Shown here: positions 6,701-34,557 of the stretch, in pieces
Numbering within the stretch: position 1 is the first letter of the stretch
How the letters are laid out: each line of letters begins with the position of its first letter
IMG/VR virus record: IMGVR_UViG_3300035162_000704
Span: 1 to 34,557 of that record
DNA length: 34,557 nt
Source: a virus
Strand: one strand, 5' to 3'
Program-made: the position numbers and the translations under genes
The notes under the pieces: model-generated
What the model saw: the letters and a program-made list of their open reading frames with translations, nothing else
Databases searched by the model: none
Told to the model about the DNA's origin: nothing

Positions 6701-8783
6701 CAGCGAAATACAAGATGCCATTGGGTATCTTGAGACCGAAACCGTTGAGGCTAGGCGTGACGCTTTACGCTCTTACCTGCGCCGACCTTATGGCAATGAG
6801 GTAGAAGGCAAGTCCTCTATAGTTACGGGTGAAGTGGCTGAAGCTATTGATGGCGCATTGCCCAGCTTAGTACGCATTTTCACAGGCTCTGATGAGATTA
6901 CCCAGTTTGATCCAGTTGCACAACGTGATGAGGCTTCAGCCAAGCAAGCCACAGACTACTGCAATTATGTCTTCTTGAAAGAAAACCACGGCGCAATAAT
7001 CCTGCATGACTGGATTAAAGACGCGCTGTTGCAGAAGGTCGGCATTGTCAAGGCATACTGGGAAGACAAGATTGACGTATCCAAAGAAACCTACGAAGGT
7101 CTAAGCGACGACGAAATCACGATCTTGCTGTCTGACAAGGACATTGAGATTGCTGAACAAGACACTGAGGAATTCCCAGTTCTTGACCAAATGGGCATGC
7201 AGGTGTTTGATGAGACGGGTATGCCGGTTGTTTACGGTGTACACAACGTCACAATCAAGCACAAAGAAAAGAGTGGCAAGGTAACGATTGAGAACGTCCC
7301 ACCAGAGGAGTTCTTAATATCGAAACGCGCCAAGACCATTGAAGACGCACCTTTTGTGGCTCACCGTCGCAATATCAGGCGTGGCGATCTAATCGCAATG
7401 GGATTTGATGAAGACATTGTTGAGACGCTATCCGCAAGCAGTGGCTTGATTTATCAAGCTGAACTGTTGACACGGTACGACAACAGCGAAATCCCAGACG
7501 AAAACAGCGCCTTGGATGAGTCAATGCAAGAGGTCGAGGTGTTTGAGTGCTACCTGCGTACCGACCAGAACAACGACGGCATACCAGAGCTACGACAAGT
7601 ATTCTTTGCTGACAACAAGATTTTGTCTGATGAGGAATGTGATTACATCCCTTTCTACTCAATTTGCCCAATTCCAATCCCGCACAAGTTTTTTGGCCAG
7701 TCACTAGCTGACAGGACAATGGACATCCAACTGATTAAGACGACTATCATGCGCCAGACGCTTGATAACCTGTACTTAACCAACAATGCAAGGGTCGTGG
7801 CTGTTGAGGGTCAAGTTAACTTAGATGACCTGCTAACCAGTACGGCTGGCGGCGTTATTCGTGCTAAGTCGCAAGGCGCAGTGCAGCAATTGGTTGTGCA
7901 AAACGTTGCCGCCCAGTCTTTCCCCATGCTGGAATACTTAGACCAAGTACAAGCTAAACGAACGGGCGTGTCAGATGCAAGCCAAGGTTTAGATGCTTCA
8001 GTGCTGCAAAACGTCACAGCCGCAGCTATTGCGTCTATGCAACAAAGTGGCGCAGGCAAGATTGAAATGATCGCTCGCATATTTGCTGAGACGGGTGTAA
8101 GAAACCTGTTCAAAGGGATCATGCATCTGGTAACAAAGTACCAGAACAAAGAAAAGATTATCCGATTGCGTGGCGAATATATCCCAATTGACCCACGCAC
8201 ATGGGCTACCGCCTACGATGTAACAGTCAACGTTGGCATTGGGGCTGGTGGTAATCGCCAAGAGCAGATGGCCACTCTAAACATGATTTCTACAAAGCAA
8301 GAGCAAATGCTGGCGGCTTATGGCCCAGCCAACCCATTTGTGTCTCCTGCCCAGTACCGCAACACTTTGGGTCGCATGGTCGAGGCGGCTGGCTTTAAGG
8401 ACTCCAACGAGTTCTACAAGCCAATTACTGCGGAACAAGACCAGCAGTTGAGCAACCCACCACCACAGCAGCCACAGCAAGACCCTGCGATGCAAATGGC
8501 ACAAGCCAAGATGCAGGCTGATTTGCAGATGGCTCAGGCTAAAATGCAGGCAGACATCCAACTGCAACAGGTCAAGGCTGAAGCCCAGATTGACTTGGAG
8601 CGCCAGAAGGCGGCTGCTGATTTGCAATTAGAGCGTGAGAAGTTTGCTATGCAGACCAAGCAGGCTGAGGCTGAGTTTGTGATGAAGACCAGACAGAAAG
8701 AGGCTGAGTTCCAAGCTGAGGTGCAAATCAAGACTGCAAAGGCAATGGCTGGCTTGCAGACCTCTGGCCAAATAATAGGGTAA
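6666..8783 (+). CDS. Portal protein with a long C-terminal coiled-coil (barrel-like) extension
   Basis: Position after terL, about 705 aa. I prefer ATG 6666 (AAGGA SD) over the track start at 6642. The C-terminus is Q/A/K/E-rich heptad-like sequence containing a tandem QMAQAKMQAD[LI] duplication. Confidence 0.85.
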   Translation: MKQSNDLKAIVDSEIQDAIGYLETETVEARRDALRSYLRRPYGNEVEGKSSIVTGEVAEAIDGALPSLVRIFTGSDEITQFDPVAQRDEASAKQATDYCNYVFLKENHGAIILHDWIKDALLQKVGIVKAYWEDKIDVSKETYEGLSDDEITILLSDKDIEIAEQDTEEFPVLDQMGMQVFDETGMPVVYGVHNVTIKHKEKSGKVTIENVPPEEFLISKRAKTIEDAPFVAHRRNIRRGDLIAMGFDEDIVETLSASSGLIYQAELLTRYDNSEIPDENSALDESMQEVEVFECYLRTDQNNDGIPELRQVFFADNKILSDEECDYIPFYSICPIPIPHKFFGQSLADRTMDIQLIKTTIMRQTLDNLYLTNNARVVAVEGQVNLDDLLTSTAGGVIRAKSQGAVQQLVVQNVAAQSFPMLEYLDQVQAKRTGVSDASQGLDASVLQNVTAAAIASMQQSGAGKIEMIARIFAETGVRNLFKGIMHLVTKYQNKEKIIRLRGEYIPIDPRTWATAYDVTVNVGIGAGGNRQEQMATLNMISTKQEQMLAAYGPANPFVSPAQYRNTLGRMVEAAGFKDSNEFYKPITAEQDQQLSNPPPQQPQQDPAMQMAQAKMQADLQMAQAKMQADIQLQQVKAEAQIDLERQKAAADLQLEREKFAMQTKQAEAEFVMKTRQKEAEFQAEVQIKTAKAMAGLQTSGQIIG

Positions 8784-29729: not shown

Positions 29730-29921
29730 ATGTTGTGGTTGCCTGTAGCGTTTATTTGTTTTTTTGGTGGCAATTGTAGTTTTGCCAGTGGCCGCCCGAC
29801 TGCGACAGCCAGCCAGTGTGAGGAAAAAAACTACAGGCTGCGGCATGAGCTTATTATTGACATGAGAATCTCAAAGTTTGAGCTTACTTGTCTAGAAATC
29901 CCAAAGGTATCATTTATATGA
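29730..29921 (+). CDS. Small secreted Cys-containing protein (63 aa), possible spanin-like component
   Basis: Strong AAGGAG SD before ATG 29730. Signal-peptide-like MLWLPVAFICFFGGNCSFASG with a non-canonical lipobox. ATGA coupling to the endolysin gene. Confidence 0.5.
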   Translation: MLWLPVAFICFFGGNCSFASGRPTATASQCEEKNYRLRHELIIDMRISKFELTCLEIPKVSFI

Positions 29922-30373
29922 AGCTATCAGCTAATTTTTCACTTAACGAGCTAACCAAGAGTGAGACAGCGACCCGCAACGGCATTTTTAACACACCATC
30001 AGCGCTGGTCATTGGAAAGCTGCAAGCATTGACTGACAACATCCTGCAACCATTGCGCGACAAGTTTGGCCCGGTCATTGTCACAAGTGCGTATCGTTCG
30101 CCAGAGGTTAACAAGGCTGTTGGGGGAAGCACCAGTTCGCATCACTGTTTTGGGTTTGCAGCCGACTTTGAGGTGCTTGGTATGGACAATCGCGAATTAG
30201 CTCTATACATCAGGGATTCGCTAACCTATACCCAGTTAATACTTGAGTATTACAATGGCGACCCAGATTCAGGCTGGGTGCATTGCAGCTATGACGCAGC
30301 CGACCTAAAGTGCCAAACACTAACTGCCAGACGGGTCAACGGGCGCACCCAGTACAGCAACGGGATTCTTTAA
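29918..30373 (+). CDS. Endolysin, peptidase M15 family (Zn D,D- or L-Ala-D-Glu peptidase type)
   Basis: SAYRSPEVNKAVGGSTSSHHCFGFAADF...GWVHCSY gives the H/D/H zinc-ligand pattern of M15 phage lysins. Confidence 0.85.
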   Translation: MKLSANFSLNELTKSETATRNGIFNTPSALVIGKLQALTDNILQPLRDKFGPVIVTSAYRSPEVNKAVGGSTSSHHCFGFAADFEVLGMDNRELALYIRDSLTYTQLILEYYNGDPDSGWVHCSYDAADLKCQTLTARRVNGRTQYSNGIL

Positions 30374-30508
30374 CCGGCCAGCAACGGCTACCTCTCTTGT
30401 TGAAAAGAGGTGGCTGTTTGCGCAAATGTAGCGTCTGTAAGTTGAGCCATTAGTGCGCTGCCTAGTCTCCTTTACTTCGCACCATGCTTGGCACTCCGGG
30501 CATATCAT
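30320..30508 (-). CDS. Small zinc-ribbon protein (62 aa), Ogr/Delta-like N-terminal pattern
   Basis: MICPECQAWCEVKETRQRTNGSTYRRYICANSHLFSTRE (CxxC...C..H). ATGA coupling to the upstream gene. The 3' 54 nt overlap the endolysin gene antisense. Confidence 0.55.
   Translation of the reverse strand: MICPECQAWCEVKETRQRTNGSTYRRYICANSHLFSTREVAVAGRLKNPVAVLGAPVDPSGS
30386..30415 (+). terminator. Weak hairpin at the convergence point of the late and early-left arms
   Basis: GGCTACCTCT-N10-AGAGGTGGCT (two G-U pairs) followed only by GTTTG. It lies inside minus-strand ORF 30320..30508. Confidence 0.35.
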
Positions 30509-31540: not shown

Positions 31541-31575
31541 TTCAATCTCCTGTTATGGGGCTTGCGCCCCGTTGG

Positions 31576-31767
31576 TTATTTCTTTTGGATGTTTGTTGGT
31601 GAGTAGGGCTGTGGAACATCGCCGCACCAGCGACCATCATGTGTTGCCAAAACTCTTTTGGGGGTGAAGCCAAAAACCACACCAGTGCAAACTGTGCCTT
31701 GGTAGTTGACCCAAACCGCATCTCCGATTGAGATTCCTTTTTCTGTCATTTGTTGTTGGGCGGTCAT
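31576..31767 (-). CDS. Hypothetical early protein (63 aa), first gene of the second leftward operon
   Basis: GGAG SD inside the conserved leader. Confidence 0.65.
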   Translation of the reverse strand: MTAQQQMTEKGISIGDAVWVNYQGTVCTGVVFGFTPKRVLATHDGRWCGDVPQPYSPTNIQKK

Positions 31768-31780
31768 TTTAGTCTCCAGT

Positions 31781-31820
31781 TGTGTTGCGATGTGTTTATT
31801 CTAATACACATAACAACACA
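31781..31820 (-). promoter_or_regulatory. 40-bp dyad operator-like element over the second leftward promoter (-10 TAGAAT at 31798-31803)
   Basis: The plus strand reads TGTGT tgcga TGTGT ttattctaat ACACA taaca ACACA. Bases 31779-31799 are identical to 33619-33639. Confidence 0.55.
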
Positions 31821-31853
31821 AAGGGAAGCTATTTTTAACTATTTTCTAGGTGA

Positions 31854-31991
31854 TTACCCTAACGCCTTCCTGACTAGATACACAATTTGCCCACTGACAG
31901 AACGGGCCTCTGCCTTGGCTTGCGTTTGTACTTGCGCGTACAAATCAATAGGGAATCGCAGGGTAACAAATTTTAATAACATTTTTTCCAT
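31854..31991 (-). CDS. Arc/CopG-type ribbon-helix-helix DNA-binding protein (45 aa, not in the ORF track)
   Basis: MEKMLLKFVTLRFPIDLYAQVQTQAKAEARSVSGQIVYLVRKALG shows the beta-strand/helix/helix pattern of Arc-like repressors. AAGGTA SD after the ssb-like stop. Confidence 0.6.
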   Translation of the reverse strand: MEKMLLKFVTLRFPIDLYAQVQTQAKAEARSVSGQIVYLVRKALG

Positions 31992-32003
31992 AATATTTAC
32001 CTT

Positions 32004-32255
32004 TTAAAACGGCATGTCATCATCAAAGTCTGGTGCAGGCGCTGGCCTTGCGGCAGGCGGTGCGGCTTGCTGTTGCTCTTTAGGCTGGAAGCTGAACGAC
32101 ATAAATTTTGTGCCATTTGCGCCAGTCTTGAGCCAAGCGCTCATCCACATTTCCACGCCATTTATCATGGCAGAGCCTTTGTAGTCTGGGTGGGTCTCTT
32201 TTTGCTTTTCATTTTTGAACAGCGAACCTGAGTTGGGTCGTATTTCGTAAGCCAT
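32004..32255 (-). CDS. Mini ssDNA-binding-like protein with an SSB-type acidic C-terminal tip (83 aa)
   Basis: It ends in PAPDFDDDMPF, which matches the canonical SSB-Ct D-D-D-[IM]-P-F. AAGGAA SD. It lies two genes downstream of Erf in the same leftward operon. Confidence 0.55.
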   Translation of the reverse strand: MAYEIRPNSGSLFKNEKQKETHPDYKGSAMINGVEMWMSAWLKTGANGTKFMSFSFQPKEQQQAAPPAARPAPAPDFDDDMPF

Positions 32256-33375: not shown

Positions 33376-33606
33376 TTAGTTGTTCCATGAGAATTCGGGC
33401 TTGCTTTCCTGCCAAGCCCTGTCTACCTCTGCTTTTAGTTCTGCTTCTAGTCCCAACACAGTGACACCAAAATGCAGGGCAACAGCCGCTACAGAGACGG
33501 CGTATATTTTGTCACTGTCGTCCCAGCCGTTATGCTGCATCTCCTGCATCTCATGGTCAAGCATCTCTACTGCCTCATCGATGTCTATGGTTTTAATATC
33601 TTGCAT
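33376..33606 (-). CDS. Hypothetical early protein (76 aa), first gene of the leftward arm
   Basis: I prefer ATG 33606, preceded by AACAGGAGATTGAAA, over the track start at 33657. Confidence 0.6.
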   Translation of the reverse strand: MQDIKTIDIDEAVEMLDHEMQEMQHNGWDDSDKIYAVSVAAVALHFGVTVLGLEAELKAEVDRAWQESKPEFSWNN

Positions 33607-33620
33607 TTTCAATCTCCTGT

Positions 33621-33660
33621 TGTGTTGCGATGTGTTTATAGTATCATACAAATTCACACA
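33621..33660 (-). promoter_or_regulatory. 40-bp dyad operator-like element over the first leftward promoter (extended -10 TGaTACTAT on the minus strand, 33638-33646)
   Basis: The plus strand reads TGTGT tgcga TGTGT ttatagtatc ATACA aattc ACACA. Same architecture as 31781-31820. Confidence 0.55.
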
Positions 33661-33666
33661 AAAGCT

Positions 33667-33680
33667 AGGTGTTTACACCT
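33667..33680. promoter_or_regulatory. 14-bp palindrome AGGTGT-TT-ACACCT in the divergent control region
   Basis: Perfect 6-bp arms read directly. It lies between the leftward and rightward promoter candidates. Confidence 0.4.
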
Positions 33681-33681
33681 A

Positions 33682-33711
33682 TTCACAAAAATAATTTTAA
33701 ACTCACATAAT
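33682..33711 (+). promoter_or_regulatory. Candidate rightward promoter TTCACA-N18-CATAAT
   Basis: The hexamers are read directly. The -10 ends 5 nt before ATG 33717, which has no SD. Confidence 0.35.
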
Positions 33712-33716
33712 CCAGC

Positions 33717-33893
33717 ATGAACCAAACATTTCAAGACTTTATGGCCGACCTTACGGTACTTGTTCGGAATCAGCCGGACACTGACATTGAGGCGGTCTTG
33801 TGGCTTAACAGCCTGACTTATAACTGCGTCATGGCTGCTGAAAAAATACAGCGCAATGACCTAAGCAAAGAGAATTTTGGAGGTACAGATTGA
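33717..33893 (+). CDS. Hypothetical 58-aa protein, first rightward ORF (possibly leaderless)
   Basis: MNQTFQDFMADLTVLVRNQPDTDIEAVLWLNSLTYNCVMAAEKIQRNDLSKENFGGTD. No SD. Below the track cutoff. Confidence 0.4.
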   Translation: MNQTFQDFMADLTVLVRNQPDTDIEAVLWLNSLTYNCVMAAEKIQRNDLSKENFGGTD

Positions 33894-34016: not shown

Positions 34017-34226
34017 ATGGGCTTTGGATTTTTCAGGGAAAACCGTCTTCGCGTCTACGGCGATGGAGAGGGCAACATTGTTATCGCGGAATACATTGAT
34101 GACGATTGTGAAGTACCAATCAACAAAATTACTATTTCTTGGGAGCGCTTTGAGCAATTCCAAAACTACTTTAATGATTTAAGGGTGGAGGCGTTCGCCT
34201 CAAGTGAGGTCAGTGATGAAGCCTAA
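34017..34226 (+). CDS. Hypothetical protein (69 aa)
   Basis: AAGGAAG SD before ATG 34017, which is internal to track ORF 33942..34226. It overlaps the start of the replication gene. Confidence 0.6.
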   Translation: MGFGFFRENRLRVYGDGEGNIVIAEYIDDDCEVPINKITISWERFEQFQNYFNDLRVEAFASSEVSDEA

Positions 34227-34557
34227 AAATTGGACGCACTTTCAGCACTACAAAGACCGCTGCCCACCTTGGATTAAATTGCATAAAGAGTTGTTAAACG
34301 ACCGTTCTTTTATGACTCTGCCAACCGCTAGCAAGGCGCTAGCACCTTTGTTGTGGTTGCTAGCAAGTGAGACAAAGGACGGCTCATTTGATGCCTCTAT
34401 TGATGAGTTGGTGTTTCGACTGCGTATGCCTGAGTCTGACATTAAGACTGGACTCAAGTCTTTGATTGATAAAGGTTTTTTTATTGACGATAGCAACGTG
34501 CTAGCAGACCGCTATCAAGATGCTATACCAGAGACAGAGACAGAGACAGAGACAGAG
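34216..34557 (+). CDS. Replication initiation protein, N-terminal part. The gene continues across the circular junction into 2..520, about 244 aa in total.
   Basis: ATG at 34216 overlaps the stop of the upstream ORF. The reading frame runs through the overlap into ORF 32..520. N-terminal sequence: MKPKNWTHFQHYKDRCPPWIKLHKELLNDRSFMTLPTASKALAPLLWLLASE, typical of phage replication/DnaD-O-like N-termini. Confidence 0.75.
   Translation, partial: MKPKNWTHFQHYKDRCPPWIKLHKELLNDRSFMTLPTASKALAPLLWLLASETKDGSFDASIDELVFRLRMPESDIKTGLKSLIDKGFFIDDSNVLADRYQDAIPETETETETE
34431..34557. repeat. Right copy of the 127-bp terminal overlap
   Basis: Identical to bases 1-127. Confidence 0.95.

Follow-up and report, generated by a model that had tools for sequence, protein, structure and literature searches.

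A repeated, putative promoter and leader cassette in the early region of an uncultured phage, with a predicted fold-back over the ribosome-binding site in its second copy

We analyzed a four-box element on the minus strand of a viral DNA stretch of 34,557 nucleotides (IMG/VR record IMGVR_UViG_3300035162_000704, positions 1 to 34,557), which is hereafter called the window. The element, at positions 33614-33660, is located in a 110-bp divergent region between the first leftward early gene and a rightward gene for a protein of 58 amino acids (aa). We refer to it as copy 1, and to a sister element downstream of a gene for a ribbon-helix-helix (RHH) protein as copy 2. In an initial annotation made from the letters of the window, the four boxes of copy 1 had been described as a dyad-symmetric, shared regulatory element over the first leftward promoter and interpreted as a repressor operator. 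Comparison with related phages indicates that both copies are members of a real and conserved cis-regulatory cassette.

The minus strand of copy 1, read from 33660 to 33604, is TGTGT gaatt TGTAT gatactataa ACACA tcgca ACACA ac AGGAG attgaaa ATG. The boxes, their spacing and their sequence agree with the initial annotation. The following features were recognized at this locus, with SD denoting a Shine-Dalgarno sequence:

33656..33660, minus strand: box 1, TGTGT, at about -29 to -25 of the leftward promoter; GTGTGT is found here only in close relatives
33650-33646, minus strand: box 2, TGTAT, which overlaps the TRTG/TGn extended -10 motif TATG (33648-33645)
33646-33638, minus strand: extended -10, TG + a + TACTAT, in the central segment, which reads TATGaTACTAT
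33638..33643, minus strand: putative -10 hexamer TACTAT of the first leftward early promoter
33621..33635, minus strand: right arm ACACATCGCAACACA, with boxes 3 (33635-33631) and 4 (33625-33621); predicted start region (-4 to +11) and CA-rich leader
33619..33639, minus strand: 21-mer ATAAACACATCGCAACACAAC, identical to 31779-31799
33614..33618, minus strand: SD sequence AGGAG of the first leftward gene
33606-33604, minus strand: ATG of the first leftward gene
33376..33606, minus strand: first leftward early gene, 76 aa, which heads the operon 33606 to 31854 (Erf, SSB-like, RHH)

The hexamer TACTAT is the sole promoter candidate for the first leftward gene within the divergent region, and the extended -10 noticed earlier in the central segment is of the TRTG type. 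The two ACACA boxes are placed, as had also been proposed, at the predicted start site and in the 5' leader just ahead of the SD sequence. Box 1 appears to be a remnant of a GT-rich 5' arm. A CRP-like site (TGTGA-N6-TCACA) was considered for copy 1 and ruled out by both sequence and spacing.

Pattern counts placed the element far beyond chance. The 21-mer ATAAACACATCGCAACACAAC occurs exactly twice in the window, even when 3 mismatches are allowed, with 0 occurrences expected from 100 shuffles, so that the reported 21-nt identity of the two loci was borne out. The pattern TGTRT-N10-ACACA-N5-ACACA gave 6 matches at two or fewer mismatches as compared to 0.39 expected, and 4 of the 6 represent the two copies read on both strands. 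A four-box score over 20 positions reached 17 or more in 426 kb only for the window copies (W1, 19/20; W2, 20/20) and two relatives, with 0-1 such cases in the shuffles. The half pattern ACACA-N5-ACACA alone was not significant (6 matches versus 4.4 expected). In IMG/VR, the exact four-box pattern was found in one other contig only.

Copy 2 is the better dyad, with the sequence TGTGT tgtta TGTGT attagaataa ACACA tcgca ACACA. Its features, together with the two genes that flank it, are:

31854..31991, minus strand: RHH (Arc/CopG-like) gene, 45 aa, the last gene ahead of copy 2
31770..31831, minus strand: predicted fold-back stem-loop
31828-31824, minus strand: anti-SD CTTCC, which pairs with the SD sequence in the fold
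31820-31806, minus strand: GT-rich left arm TGTGTTGTTATGTGT
31803-31798, minus strand: -10 hexamer TAGAAT, in the apical loop of the predicted stem
31795-31781, minus strand: right arm ACACATCGCAACACA, in the leader
31778-31774, minus strand: SD sequence TGGAG, paired in the fold
31576..31767, minus strand: 63-aa gene, the first of the second leftward block, directly downstream of copy 2

The predicted RNA folds of the two copies were distinct. Copy 2 folds at -23.7 kcal/mol (z -5.53) with the SD sequence paired, and none of 200 shuffles was as stable. The corresponding stretch of copy 1 (33604-33665) folds at -9.3 kcal/mol (z -0.69), 52 of 200 shuffles were as stable, and the pairing of its SD sequence is weak and not significant. 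The copies also differ in what is located upstream of them. The operon upstream of copy 2 is on the same strand, and a terminator scan called no terminator-like site from 33606 to 31854, whereas the genes upstream of copy 1 are on the opposite strand. An intrinsic terminator at either copy was rejected; neither is followed by a T-run or U-tract, and neither was called by the terminator scan.

Relatives of the window were fetched by means of the 58-aa protein, Erf, a conserved 17-mer and an alignment of the RHH protein. Cassettes of the same type were present in 1-3 copies per genome in these uncultured phages, with two in the window. Their components follow each other in a fixed order: a TAGG-N7/8-CCTA dyad, a weak -35, a -10 hexamer, 2 nt, a CA-rich leader, 2-5 nt, the SD sequence and the ATG. 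About 35-52 non-redundant cassettes share the -10, the 2-nt gap, the leader starting with ACACA and the SD sequence. A -10-like hexamer (TAGAAT, CATAAT, TAAAAT, TAAGAT, TATAAT, TATACT or TACTAT) was located exactly 2 nt ahead of the right arm in 51 of 52 cassettes, which supports the earlier suggestion of a shared cis-regulatory element that overlaps a promoter. The 15-mer leader was found in 12 versions, the most common of which, ACACATCGCAACACA, accounts for 25 of the 52 cassettes, and a single genome can carry two of them (for example L014). Across the cassettes the first ACACA box hardly varies, and 17-21 nt of the leader are identical in dozens of contigs. The family as a whole has been kept across contigs that are 65-85% identical.

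The genes that follow the cassettes are more variable. At least 10 different genes were found downstream of the cassette ATG among the related phages. Between the window and the relative L001, the gene order differs exactly at the cassettes, and the gene 31576..31767 follows the cassette of the divergent region in L001. In both copies, homology breakpoints were concentrated at the SD/ATG edge, and further peaks were seen at gene borders elsewhere. Two RHH-adjacent cassettes (L154 and L164) appear to be natural chimeras with the left arm of one version and the right arm of another, and their inner stems are weaker. This suggests recombination within the loop and -10 region. Another contig (L165) carries two consecutive hairpin-type cassettes, around 1612 and around 1928. 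The second of these does not follow an RHH gene, yet has a perfect stem of 11-12 bp, in which the left arm TTGGTATGTGT matches a variant right arm ACACATACCAA.

Copy 1 was also compared with the orthologous divergent locus in the relatives. The TAGG dyad, the -10 and the SD sequence are kept there. The four-box layout is not conserved: box 2 reads CTATG (in CTATG-n-CATAAT), and one lineage has a different leader in the place of boxes 3 and 4. With regard to the box spacing in related phages, the geometry 0/10/25/35 holds for the window and one relative, to which it is specific, but 28 of 31 dyad copies have a central spacer of 9 nt, and only two have one of 10 nt. An extended -10 (TGn) was present in 13 of the 21 cassettes that are not adjacent to an RHH gene, as compared to 0 of the 31 that are.

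The TAGG-N7/8-CCTA dyad was located upstream of both copies:

33666..33681, no strand assigned: TAGGTGTTTACACCTA dyad (TAGG-N8-CCTA), upstream module of copy 1, centered at about -42.5 from the predicted leftward start and -44.5 from the predicted rightward start
31847..31861, no strand assigned: TAGGGTAATCACCTA dyad of copy 2, centered at about -62.5, overlapping the stop codon of the RHH gene

The dyad pattern has 3 matches in the window as compared to 0.46 expected, and two of these are at the cassettes. It was found in 50 of 52 cassettes, with its center at -41.5 to -44 or at -61.5 to -63.5 from the predicted start. The two positions (about -42 and about -62) are two helical turns apart, and they are the classic positions of class II and class I activators, respectively. 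Across the RHH groups, the dyad keeps its overlap with the stop codon of the RHH gene in two reading frames, and it is more conserved than the pentamers. For these two reasons it is a candidate RHH site at least as good as the pentamers. It also resembles TAGA-N5-TCTA, which we take to be the half-site arrangement of Arc, at least as well as the ACACA boxes do. A terminator tool flagged the dyad of copy 1. The most common version, TAGGGTAAACACCTA, has a stem of 4 bp only, and a protein site is more likely than a terminator hairpin.

The mirror symmetry of the arms was closely linked to the RHH gene. A strongly complementary upstream arm was found almost only in the cassette that follows an RHH gene. 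In the first searches, 15 distinct loci showed a dyad-type cassette 37-63 nt after an RHH gene of 45-48 aa, and searches based on the RHH protein and in metagenomes added many further linked cassettes. We folded the stretch from upstream of the arm through the start codon for each cassette. The 31 RHH-adjacent cassettes had a mean of -26.7 kcal/mol (z -6.2), and in 28 of them an anti-SD farther upstream (CTCC, TTCC or TTCTT) paired with the SD sequence. The corresponding values for the 21 other cassettes were -17 to -19 kcal/mol and z about -3, with the SD sequence paired in 4.

A second sample from metagenomes was blind to pairing, since selection of its loci required nothing but a TAGG dyad, a -10 and the first ACACA. 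The 35 RHH-adjacent cassettes in this sample folded at -25.0 kcal/mol (z -5.8) with the SD sequence paired in 33, and the 15 others at -15.6 kcal/mol (z -3.1) with the SD sequence paired in 5, of which 3 were located too close to a contig edge for an RHH gene to be visible. The predicted folds placed the -10 hexamer in the apical loop in copy 2 as well as in the 31 and 35 related copies. A distant lineage (L189-L193) displayed the same arrangement with yet another arm sequence.

The arms were found to change together. One RHH protein is identical in about 20 contigs, and the adjoining arms nevertheless differ: the left arm GTCCTGTAT occurs with the right arm ATACAGGAC, and the left arm GGCTTGTAT with the right arm ATACCAACC. 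We swapped arms between cassettes and compared the stability of native and chimeric folds, using permutations that ignore relatedness. Beside the identical RHH protein, the native combinations folded at -24.9 kcal/mol as compared to -22.5 kcal/mol for the chimeras (16 of 2000 permutations as stable). For all groups the values were -25.1 and -18.8 kcal/mol (0 of 2000), and for the pairing-blind sample -25.0 and -19.2 kcal/mol (0 of 1000). Positions 6-8 of the right arm, which correspond to the spacer between the boxes, remained paired through three to five canonical pair types; positions 13 and 14 were also paired through several.

The sense RNA was predicted to be more stable than the antisense RNA in 27 of the 35 RHH-adjacent cassettes of the pairing-blind sample (-25.0 versus -20.9 kcal/mol; Wilcoxon p = 4e-4). 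In the arm family of the window the gap amounts to 4-15 kcal/mol because many of the pairs are G.U. An anti-SD/SD helix is meaningful in RNA only. Taken together, the arm tests and this helix point to selection on a stem in the modeled sense RNA, and away from pentamers read by a protein.

Based on these comparisons we consider it probable, with moderate confidence, that the element is an extended -10 early promoter joined to a shared leader, in a cassette that resembles the promoter(early) stem-loops (PeSLs) of other phages, and that copy 2 adds an SD-masking fold-back of the type described for IS10. From the observed anatomy, conservation, arm co-variation and predicted folds we infer that the promoters are active, where transcription starts, that transcripts read through from the first operon and that translation is affected. 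Copy 1 would represent the core of the first leftward early promoter, consisting of TATGaTACTAT, a CA-rich start region and 5' leader (ACACATCGCAACACAAC) and the SD sequence. The mirror symmetry would be a selected property of copy 2, the sister copy after the RHH gene. In the sense RNA of that copy, the leader and the SD sequence would be paired with the GT-rich arm and the anti-SD, leaving the -10 in the loop. A read-through transcript from the first operon would carry the ribosome-binding site of the next gene locked in a stem of 20-25 bp, whereas a transcript begun inside the loop of copy 2 would lack the 5' arm and would be translatable. No transcription would arrive from upstream on the same strand at copy 1, where two pentamers of the 5' arm have been kept, one of which may double as the extended -10. 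The 21-nt identity of the copies would correspond to the shared leader, which is also the 3' arm.

Several observations weigh against this explanation. The leftward promoters of both copies were not called by a consensus scan, because their -35 hexamers are weak. The left arms of copy 1 and copy 2 differ at five positions, four of which are in the 5-nt spacer, and the pentamers are kept (chance about 0.02), which is the pattern that an operator would predict. RNAalifold identified 0 and 1 fully compensatory pairs on fixed alignments; formal covariation is low there because the pairing register shifts between lineages. The arm-swap tests are independent of register, but are based on per-sequence minimum free energy folds, and their permutations do not account for relatedness. 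In the lineage with the constant RHH protein, sense and antisense RNAs are about equally stable, so that a role at the DNA level is possible in that lineage. Many phages with 70-85% identity elsewhere share the very same leader, which is a higher degree of conservation than a leader without structure needs. Finally, the RHH protein must have a binding site of some kind.

The interpretation as a protein operator, in which a dimer-of-dimers repressor (RHH or another early protein) would bind the TGTGT/ACACA pentamers, occlude the -10 and the start of both leftward promoters and shut off early leftward transcription, is in our view unlikely. It agrees with the overlap of the four pentamers with the -10 and start in both copies, with the helical spacing of the repeated subsites over the promoter in the window, with the kept pentamers of copy 1 and with the near invariance of the first ACACA box. 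It also agrees with the RHH gene always adjoining the dyad-type copy, and with the conservation across four RHH groups of the presumed DNA-reading beta-strand positions [FY]-x-[TS]-x-R, which we take to align with those of Arc. However, the outer box reads ACACA, AACAA or ACCAA beside an identical RHH protein, and the inter-box spacers, which a repressor of this kind would leave aside, co-vary in the two arms (TGCGA/TCGCA, TGGTA/TACCA, GTCCTG/CAGGAC) and stay paired through 3-5 pair types. The predominant 9-nt central spacer, the extension of the pairing into the anti-SD/SD helix (28/31 and 33/35) and the higher stability of the G.U-containing sense RNA (27/35) speak against the repressor as well, and for copy 1 so do its insignificant fold, the CTATG box 2 and the replaceable boxes 3 and 4 at the orthologous locus. 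The initial annotation is only partly supported, and the comparisons lend no positive support to its operator. Conservation of the leader could instead reflect a trans-acting factor, with the leader, with or without the TAGG dyad, being the target of a translational enhancer or repressor on the mRNA or of a host or phage activator at -42/-62, and the upstream pentamers being incidental. The 17-21 nt that are identical in dozens of contigs, the presence of the dyad in 50 of 52 cassettes, at either of two positions separated by two helical turns, and the weak -35 hexamers would be accounted for in this way. We nevertheless regard such a target as rather improbable. The twelve leader versions, two of which can share one genome, suggest that no single leader sequence is required, and no candidate factor was found, with the 58-aa neighbor being a plain helical hairpin.

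The stem-loop could also act on transcription or RNA processing, as a PeSL-type attenuator or terminator or as an RNase III site that separates the leftward operons, with copy 1 as the promoter half. This is possible, although on the doubtful side, and is not mutually exclusive with the promoter and fold-back explanation. PeSL stem-loops have been shown to attenuate or terminate transcription, often from a position over the -10. The stem here is located between two operons, immediately downstream of the stop codon of the RHH gene, and stems of 20-25 bp with internal loops are within the size that RNase III requires. On the other hand, no U-tract follows the stem, the terminator scan did not call it, and its regular reach to the SD sequence would be left unexplained. 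Common descent alone, that is, a recent duplication or gene conversion of the promoter region with symmetry by chance, seems highly improbable. The copies are paralogous and the cassettes appear to recombine, as in the chimeras above, but chance symmetry is at odds with the maintenance of the family across divergent contigs, the co-variation of the arms and the pattern counts.

A more elaborate scheme, which we consider speculative and improbable, combines the RHH gene, the TAGG dyad and the fold-back cassette into a timing gate with two keys, in which the RHH protein would be an activator at the dyad two or three helical turns upstream. Since the copy 2 promoter has neither a -35 nor an extended -10, it would depend on a factor bound to the dyad. 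Since the anti-SD stem would lock the next ribosome-binding site, a read-through mRNA would be untranslatable past the RHH gene. If this were true, expression of the second operon, whose last gene encodes a putative Ogr/Delta-like late activator, would be delayed until the RHH protein accumulates.

The window begins and ends with the same 127 bases (1-127 = 34431-34557), which identifies it as a complete, circularly assembled phage genome of 34,430 bp. A replication gene (DUF1376-like, 244 aa) begins at 34216 and spans the circle junction. Within it, a hexanucleotide repeat (CAGAGA)n, at about 100-135 and 34530-34557 of the window, codes for a PETETETETETE linker. The assembly overlap stops within this repeat, which is also present in the relative L018. 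Some relatives are on contigs of 44-67 kb, which may be concatemeric assemblies. The rightward genes include the DUF1376-type replication gene, NinB, NinG and structural and lysis genes. The leftward early block extends from 33606 to 30320 and contains the 76-aa gene, a 63-aa gene, Erf, a 96-aa gene, the SSB-like gene, the 45-aa RHH gene, copy 2 and small genes.

The RHH gene product matched the Pfam family RHH_5 (E 1.4e-8; 34.7 bits with a cut-off of 26). The gene ahead of it (32004-32255, minus strand) encodes an SSB-like (single-stranded DNA-binding) protein with a PHROG SSB match at 6e-14 and an acidic C-terminal tail (...DFDDDMPF); its 83 aa are unusually short for an SSB, and in the relatives the RHH gene is always the next gene after it. 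A GC-rich tetraloop hairpin (GGGGC-GCAA-GCCCC, 31556-31571, minus strand) was observed between the 63-aa and 65-aa genes, just 5' of the next SD sequence. It is kept in L189 (gap 7109-7146). The coding strand has no U-tract after the hairpin, which may be an RNA stabilizer or a processing site. The final gene of the leftward block (30320-30508, minus strand) encodes a 62-aa Ogr/Delta-like zinc finger (Pfam E 3.9e-4, below the cut-off) that could be an activator of late genes. Its 3' end overlaps convergently with the end of the rightward gene 29888-30373.

On the other side of copy 1, two rightward features were recognized:

33682..33711, plus strand: rightward promoter candidate TTCACA-18-CATAAT from the consensus scan (10/12 matches), back-to-back with copy 1
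33717..33893, plus strand: divergent 58-aa gene, kept across the clade, with a predicted two-helix hairpin

The -10 of this candidate ends 5 nt ahead of the ATG at 33717 and no SD sequence is present, so that the mRNA of the 58-aa gene is probably leaderless. In the L189 lineage, a 19-nt insertion supplies a normal leader with GAGGAGGG at the rightward promoter. The 58-aa protein was considered as a regulator and rejected; it has no Pfam match, no DNA-binding signature, a confident prediction of a two-helix hairpin and no significant fold match in PDB.

No integrase or cI/cro-type repressor was found in the window or in the longer relatives, including L189-L193, and no tRNA or known RNA family in the whole window (Rfam 15 at the gathering threshold, 0 matches). 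Megablast of the early region retrieved no close cultured relative, and tblastn with the 541-aa open reading frame, the RHH protein and Erf gave only partial matches of 34-59% in unrelated or uncultured phages. A scan of 185k species genomes for prophage copies with the 17-mer returned 51 matches, all of which were in coding sequences or due to chance and lacked the promoter context. The homologs derive from aquatic and marine metagenomes, including Tara. The clade gives the impression of being virulent, or at least of not integrating.

The PeSL cassettes of T4-type phages consist of an early promoter of the sigma70 type with a stem-loop between the -35 and -10 or over the -10, and the SD sequence and ATG at the 3' end (PMC2839356, PMC4122927). 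They flank small genes of unknown function, the gene content differs at the cassettes, and crossovers occur between the -10 and SD sequence or in the loop (PMC2839356, PMC4122927), which is where the chimeric cassettes of L154 and L164 appear to have recombined. The cassettes described here are similar in that the SD sequence and start codon of the downstream gene are at the 3' end in copy 1, copy 2 and the relatives, and in that a repeated cassette is associated with gene replacement among related phages, with breakpoints at the cassette edges in addition to other gene borders. A stable stem-loop over the -10 is shared by copy 2 and the RHH-adjacent copies, but not by copy 1. As for the promoter itself, good -10 hexamers stand at a fixed position in 52 of 52 cassettes and that of copy 1 is extended, whereas the -35 hexamers are weak and the leftward promoters were not called. 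There are further differences. The genome is lambdoid in style and 34 kb in size rather than that of a T4-type myovirus, it carries 1-3 copies, and a TAGG...CCTA dyad is located at -42/-62. The stem is GT/CA-rich instead of polyG/polyC, extends to the anti-SD/SD helix and is strong only in the RHH-adjacent copy. Moreover, PeSLs are documented by activity and mini-circle data, and the present cassettes by sequence.

Fold-back inhibition of read-through transcripts was reportedly described for IS10 and IS50 by Davis, Simons and Kleckner in 1985, with an inverted repeat that brackets the promoter of the insertion sequence (IS) itself. Only transcripts that enter from outside are said to hold both arms, by which the ribosome-binding site is sequestered. 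Similarly, the arms in copy 2 and its class bracket the putative promoter, the predicted start is located between them, and the 3' arm takes in the ribosome-binding site, with the SD sequence paired in 28/31 and 33/35 cassettes as compared to 4/21 and 5/15 of the others. The device is here within a phage early operon and not at a transposon end. Protection against impinging transcription in combination with an SD-sequestering stem-loop is also known from the left end of IS200 (PMC4513863). In that case the SD stem is present in the transcript of the element itself as well, which is a difference from copy 2.

Two regulatory systems of other phages are similar in part. Arc and Mnt of the immI region of phage P22 are RHH repressors, and Arc acts at the P22 promoter Pant. 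The likeness consists of a small RHH gene in an early operon beside a dyad-symmetric site over a promoter. The RHH protein of the window, however, is only weakly similar to solved structures (Mnt, E 0.19; AmrZ, E 0.96), and the arms vary beside an identical protein, the spacers co-vary and the SD sequence is within the pairing. The back-to-back early promoters, with recombination genes (Erf, SSB) to the left and replication genes and NinB/NinG to the right, recall the lambdoid promoters PL and PR with their operators OL and OR. In this case the differences are that neither cI/cro-type genes nor an integrase were found in the window and its relatives, and that a single 110-bp region with one dyad at its center is common to both promoters.

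With regard to annotation practice, comparative data should be at hand before a dyad symmetry over a promoter is called an operator. Because the arms co-vary, clear and cheap experiments can be designed for a phage group that has no cultured member. If the proposed explanation is true, promoter/stem-loop cassettes, so far described in T4-type myoviruses, would also serve to organize and shuffle the early regions of small phages of the lambdoid style in aquatic metagenomes. Such a cassette could then add an extra layer, with an internal promoter in the loop of an SD-sequestering stem, and the logic by which insertion sequences resist transcription from outside would be used within a phage operon.

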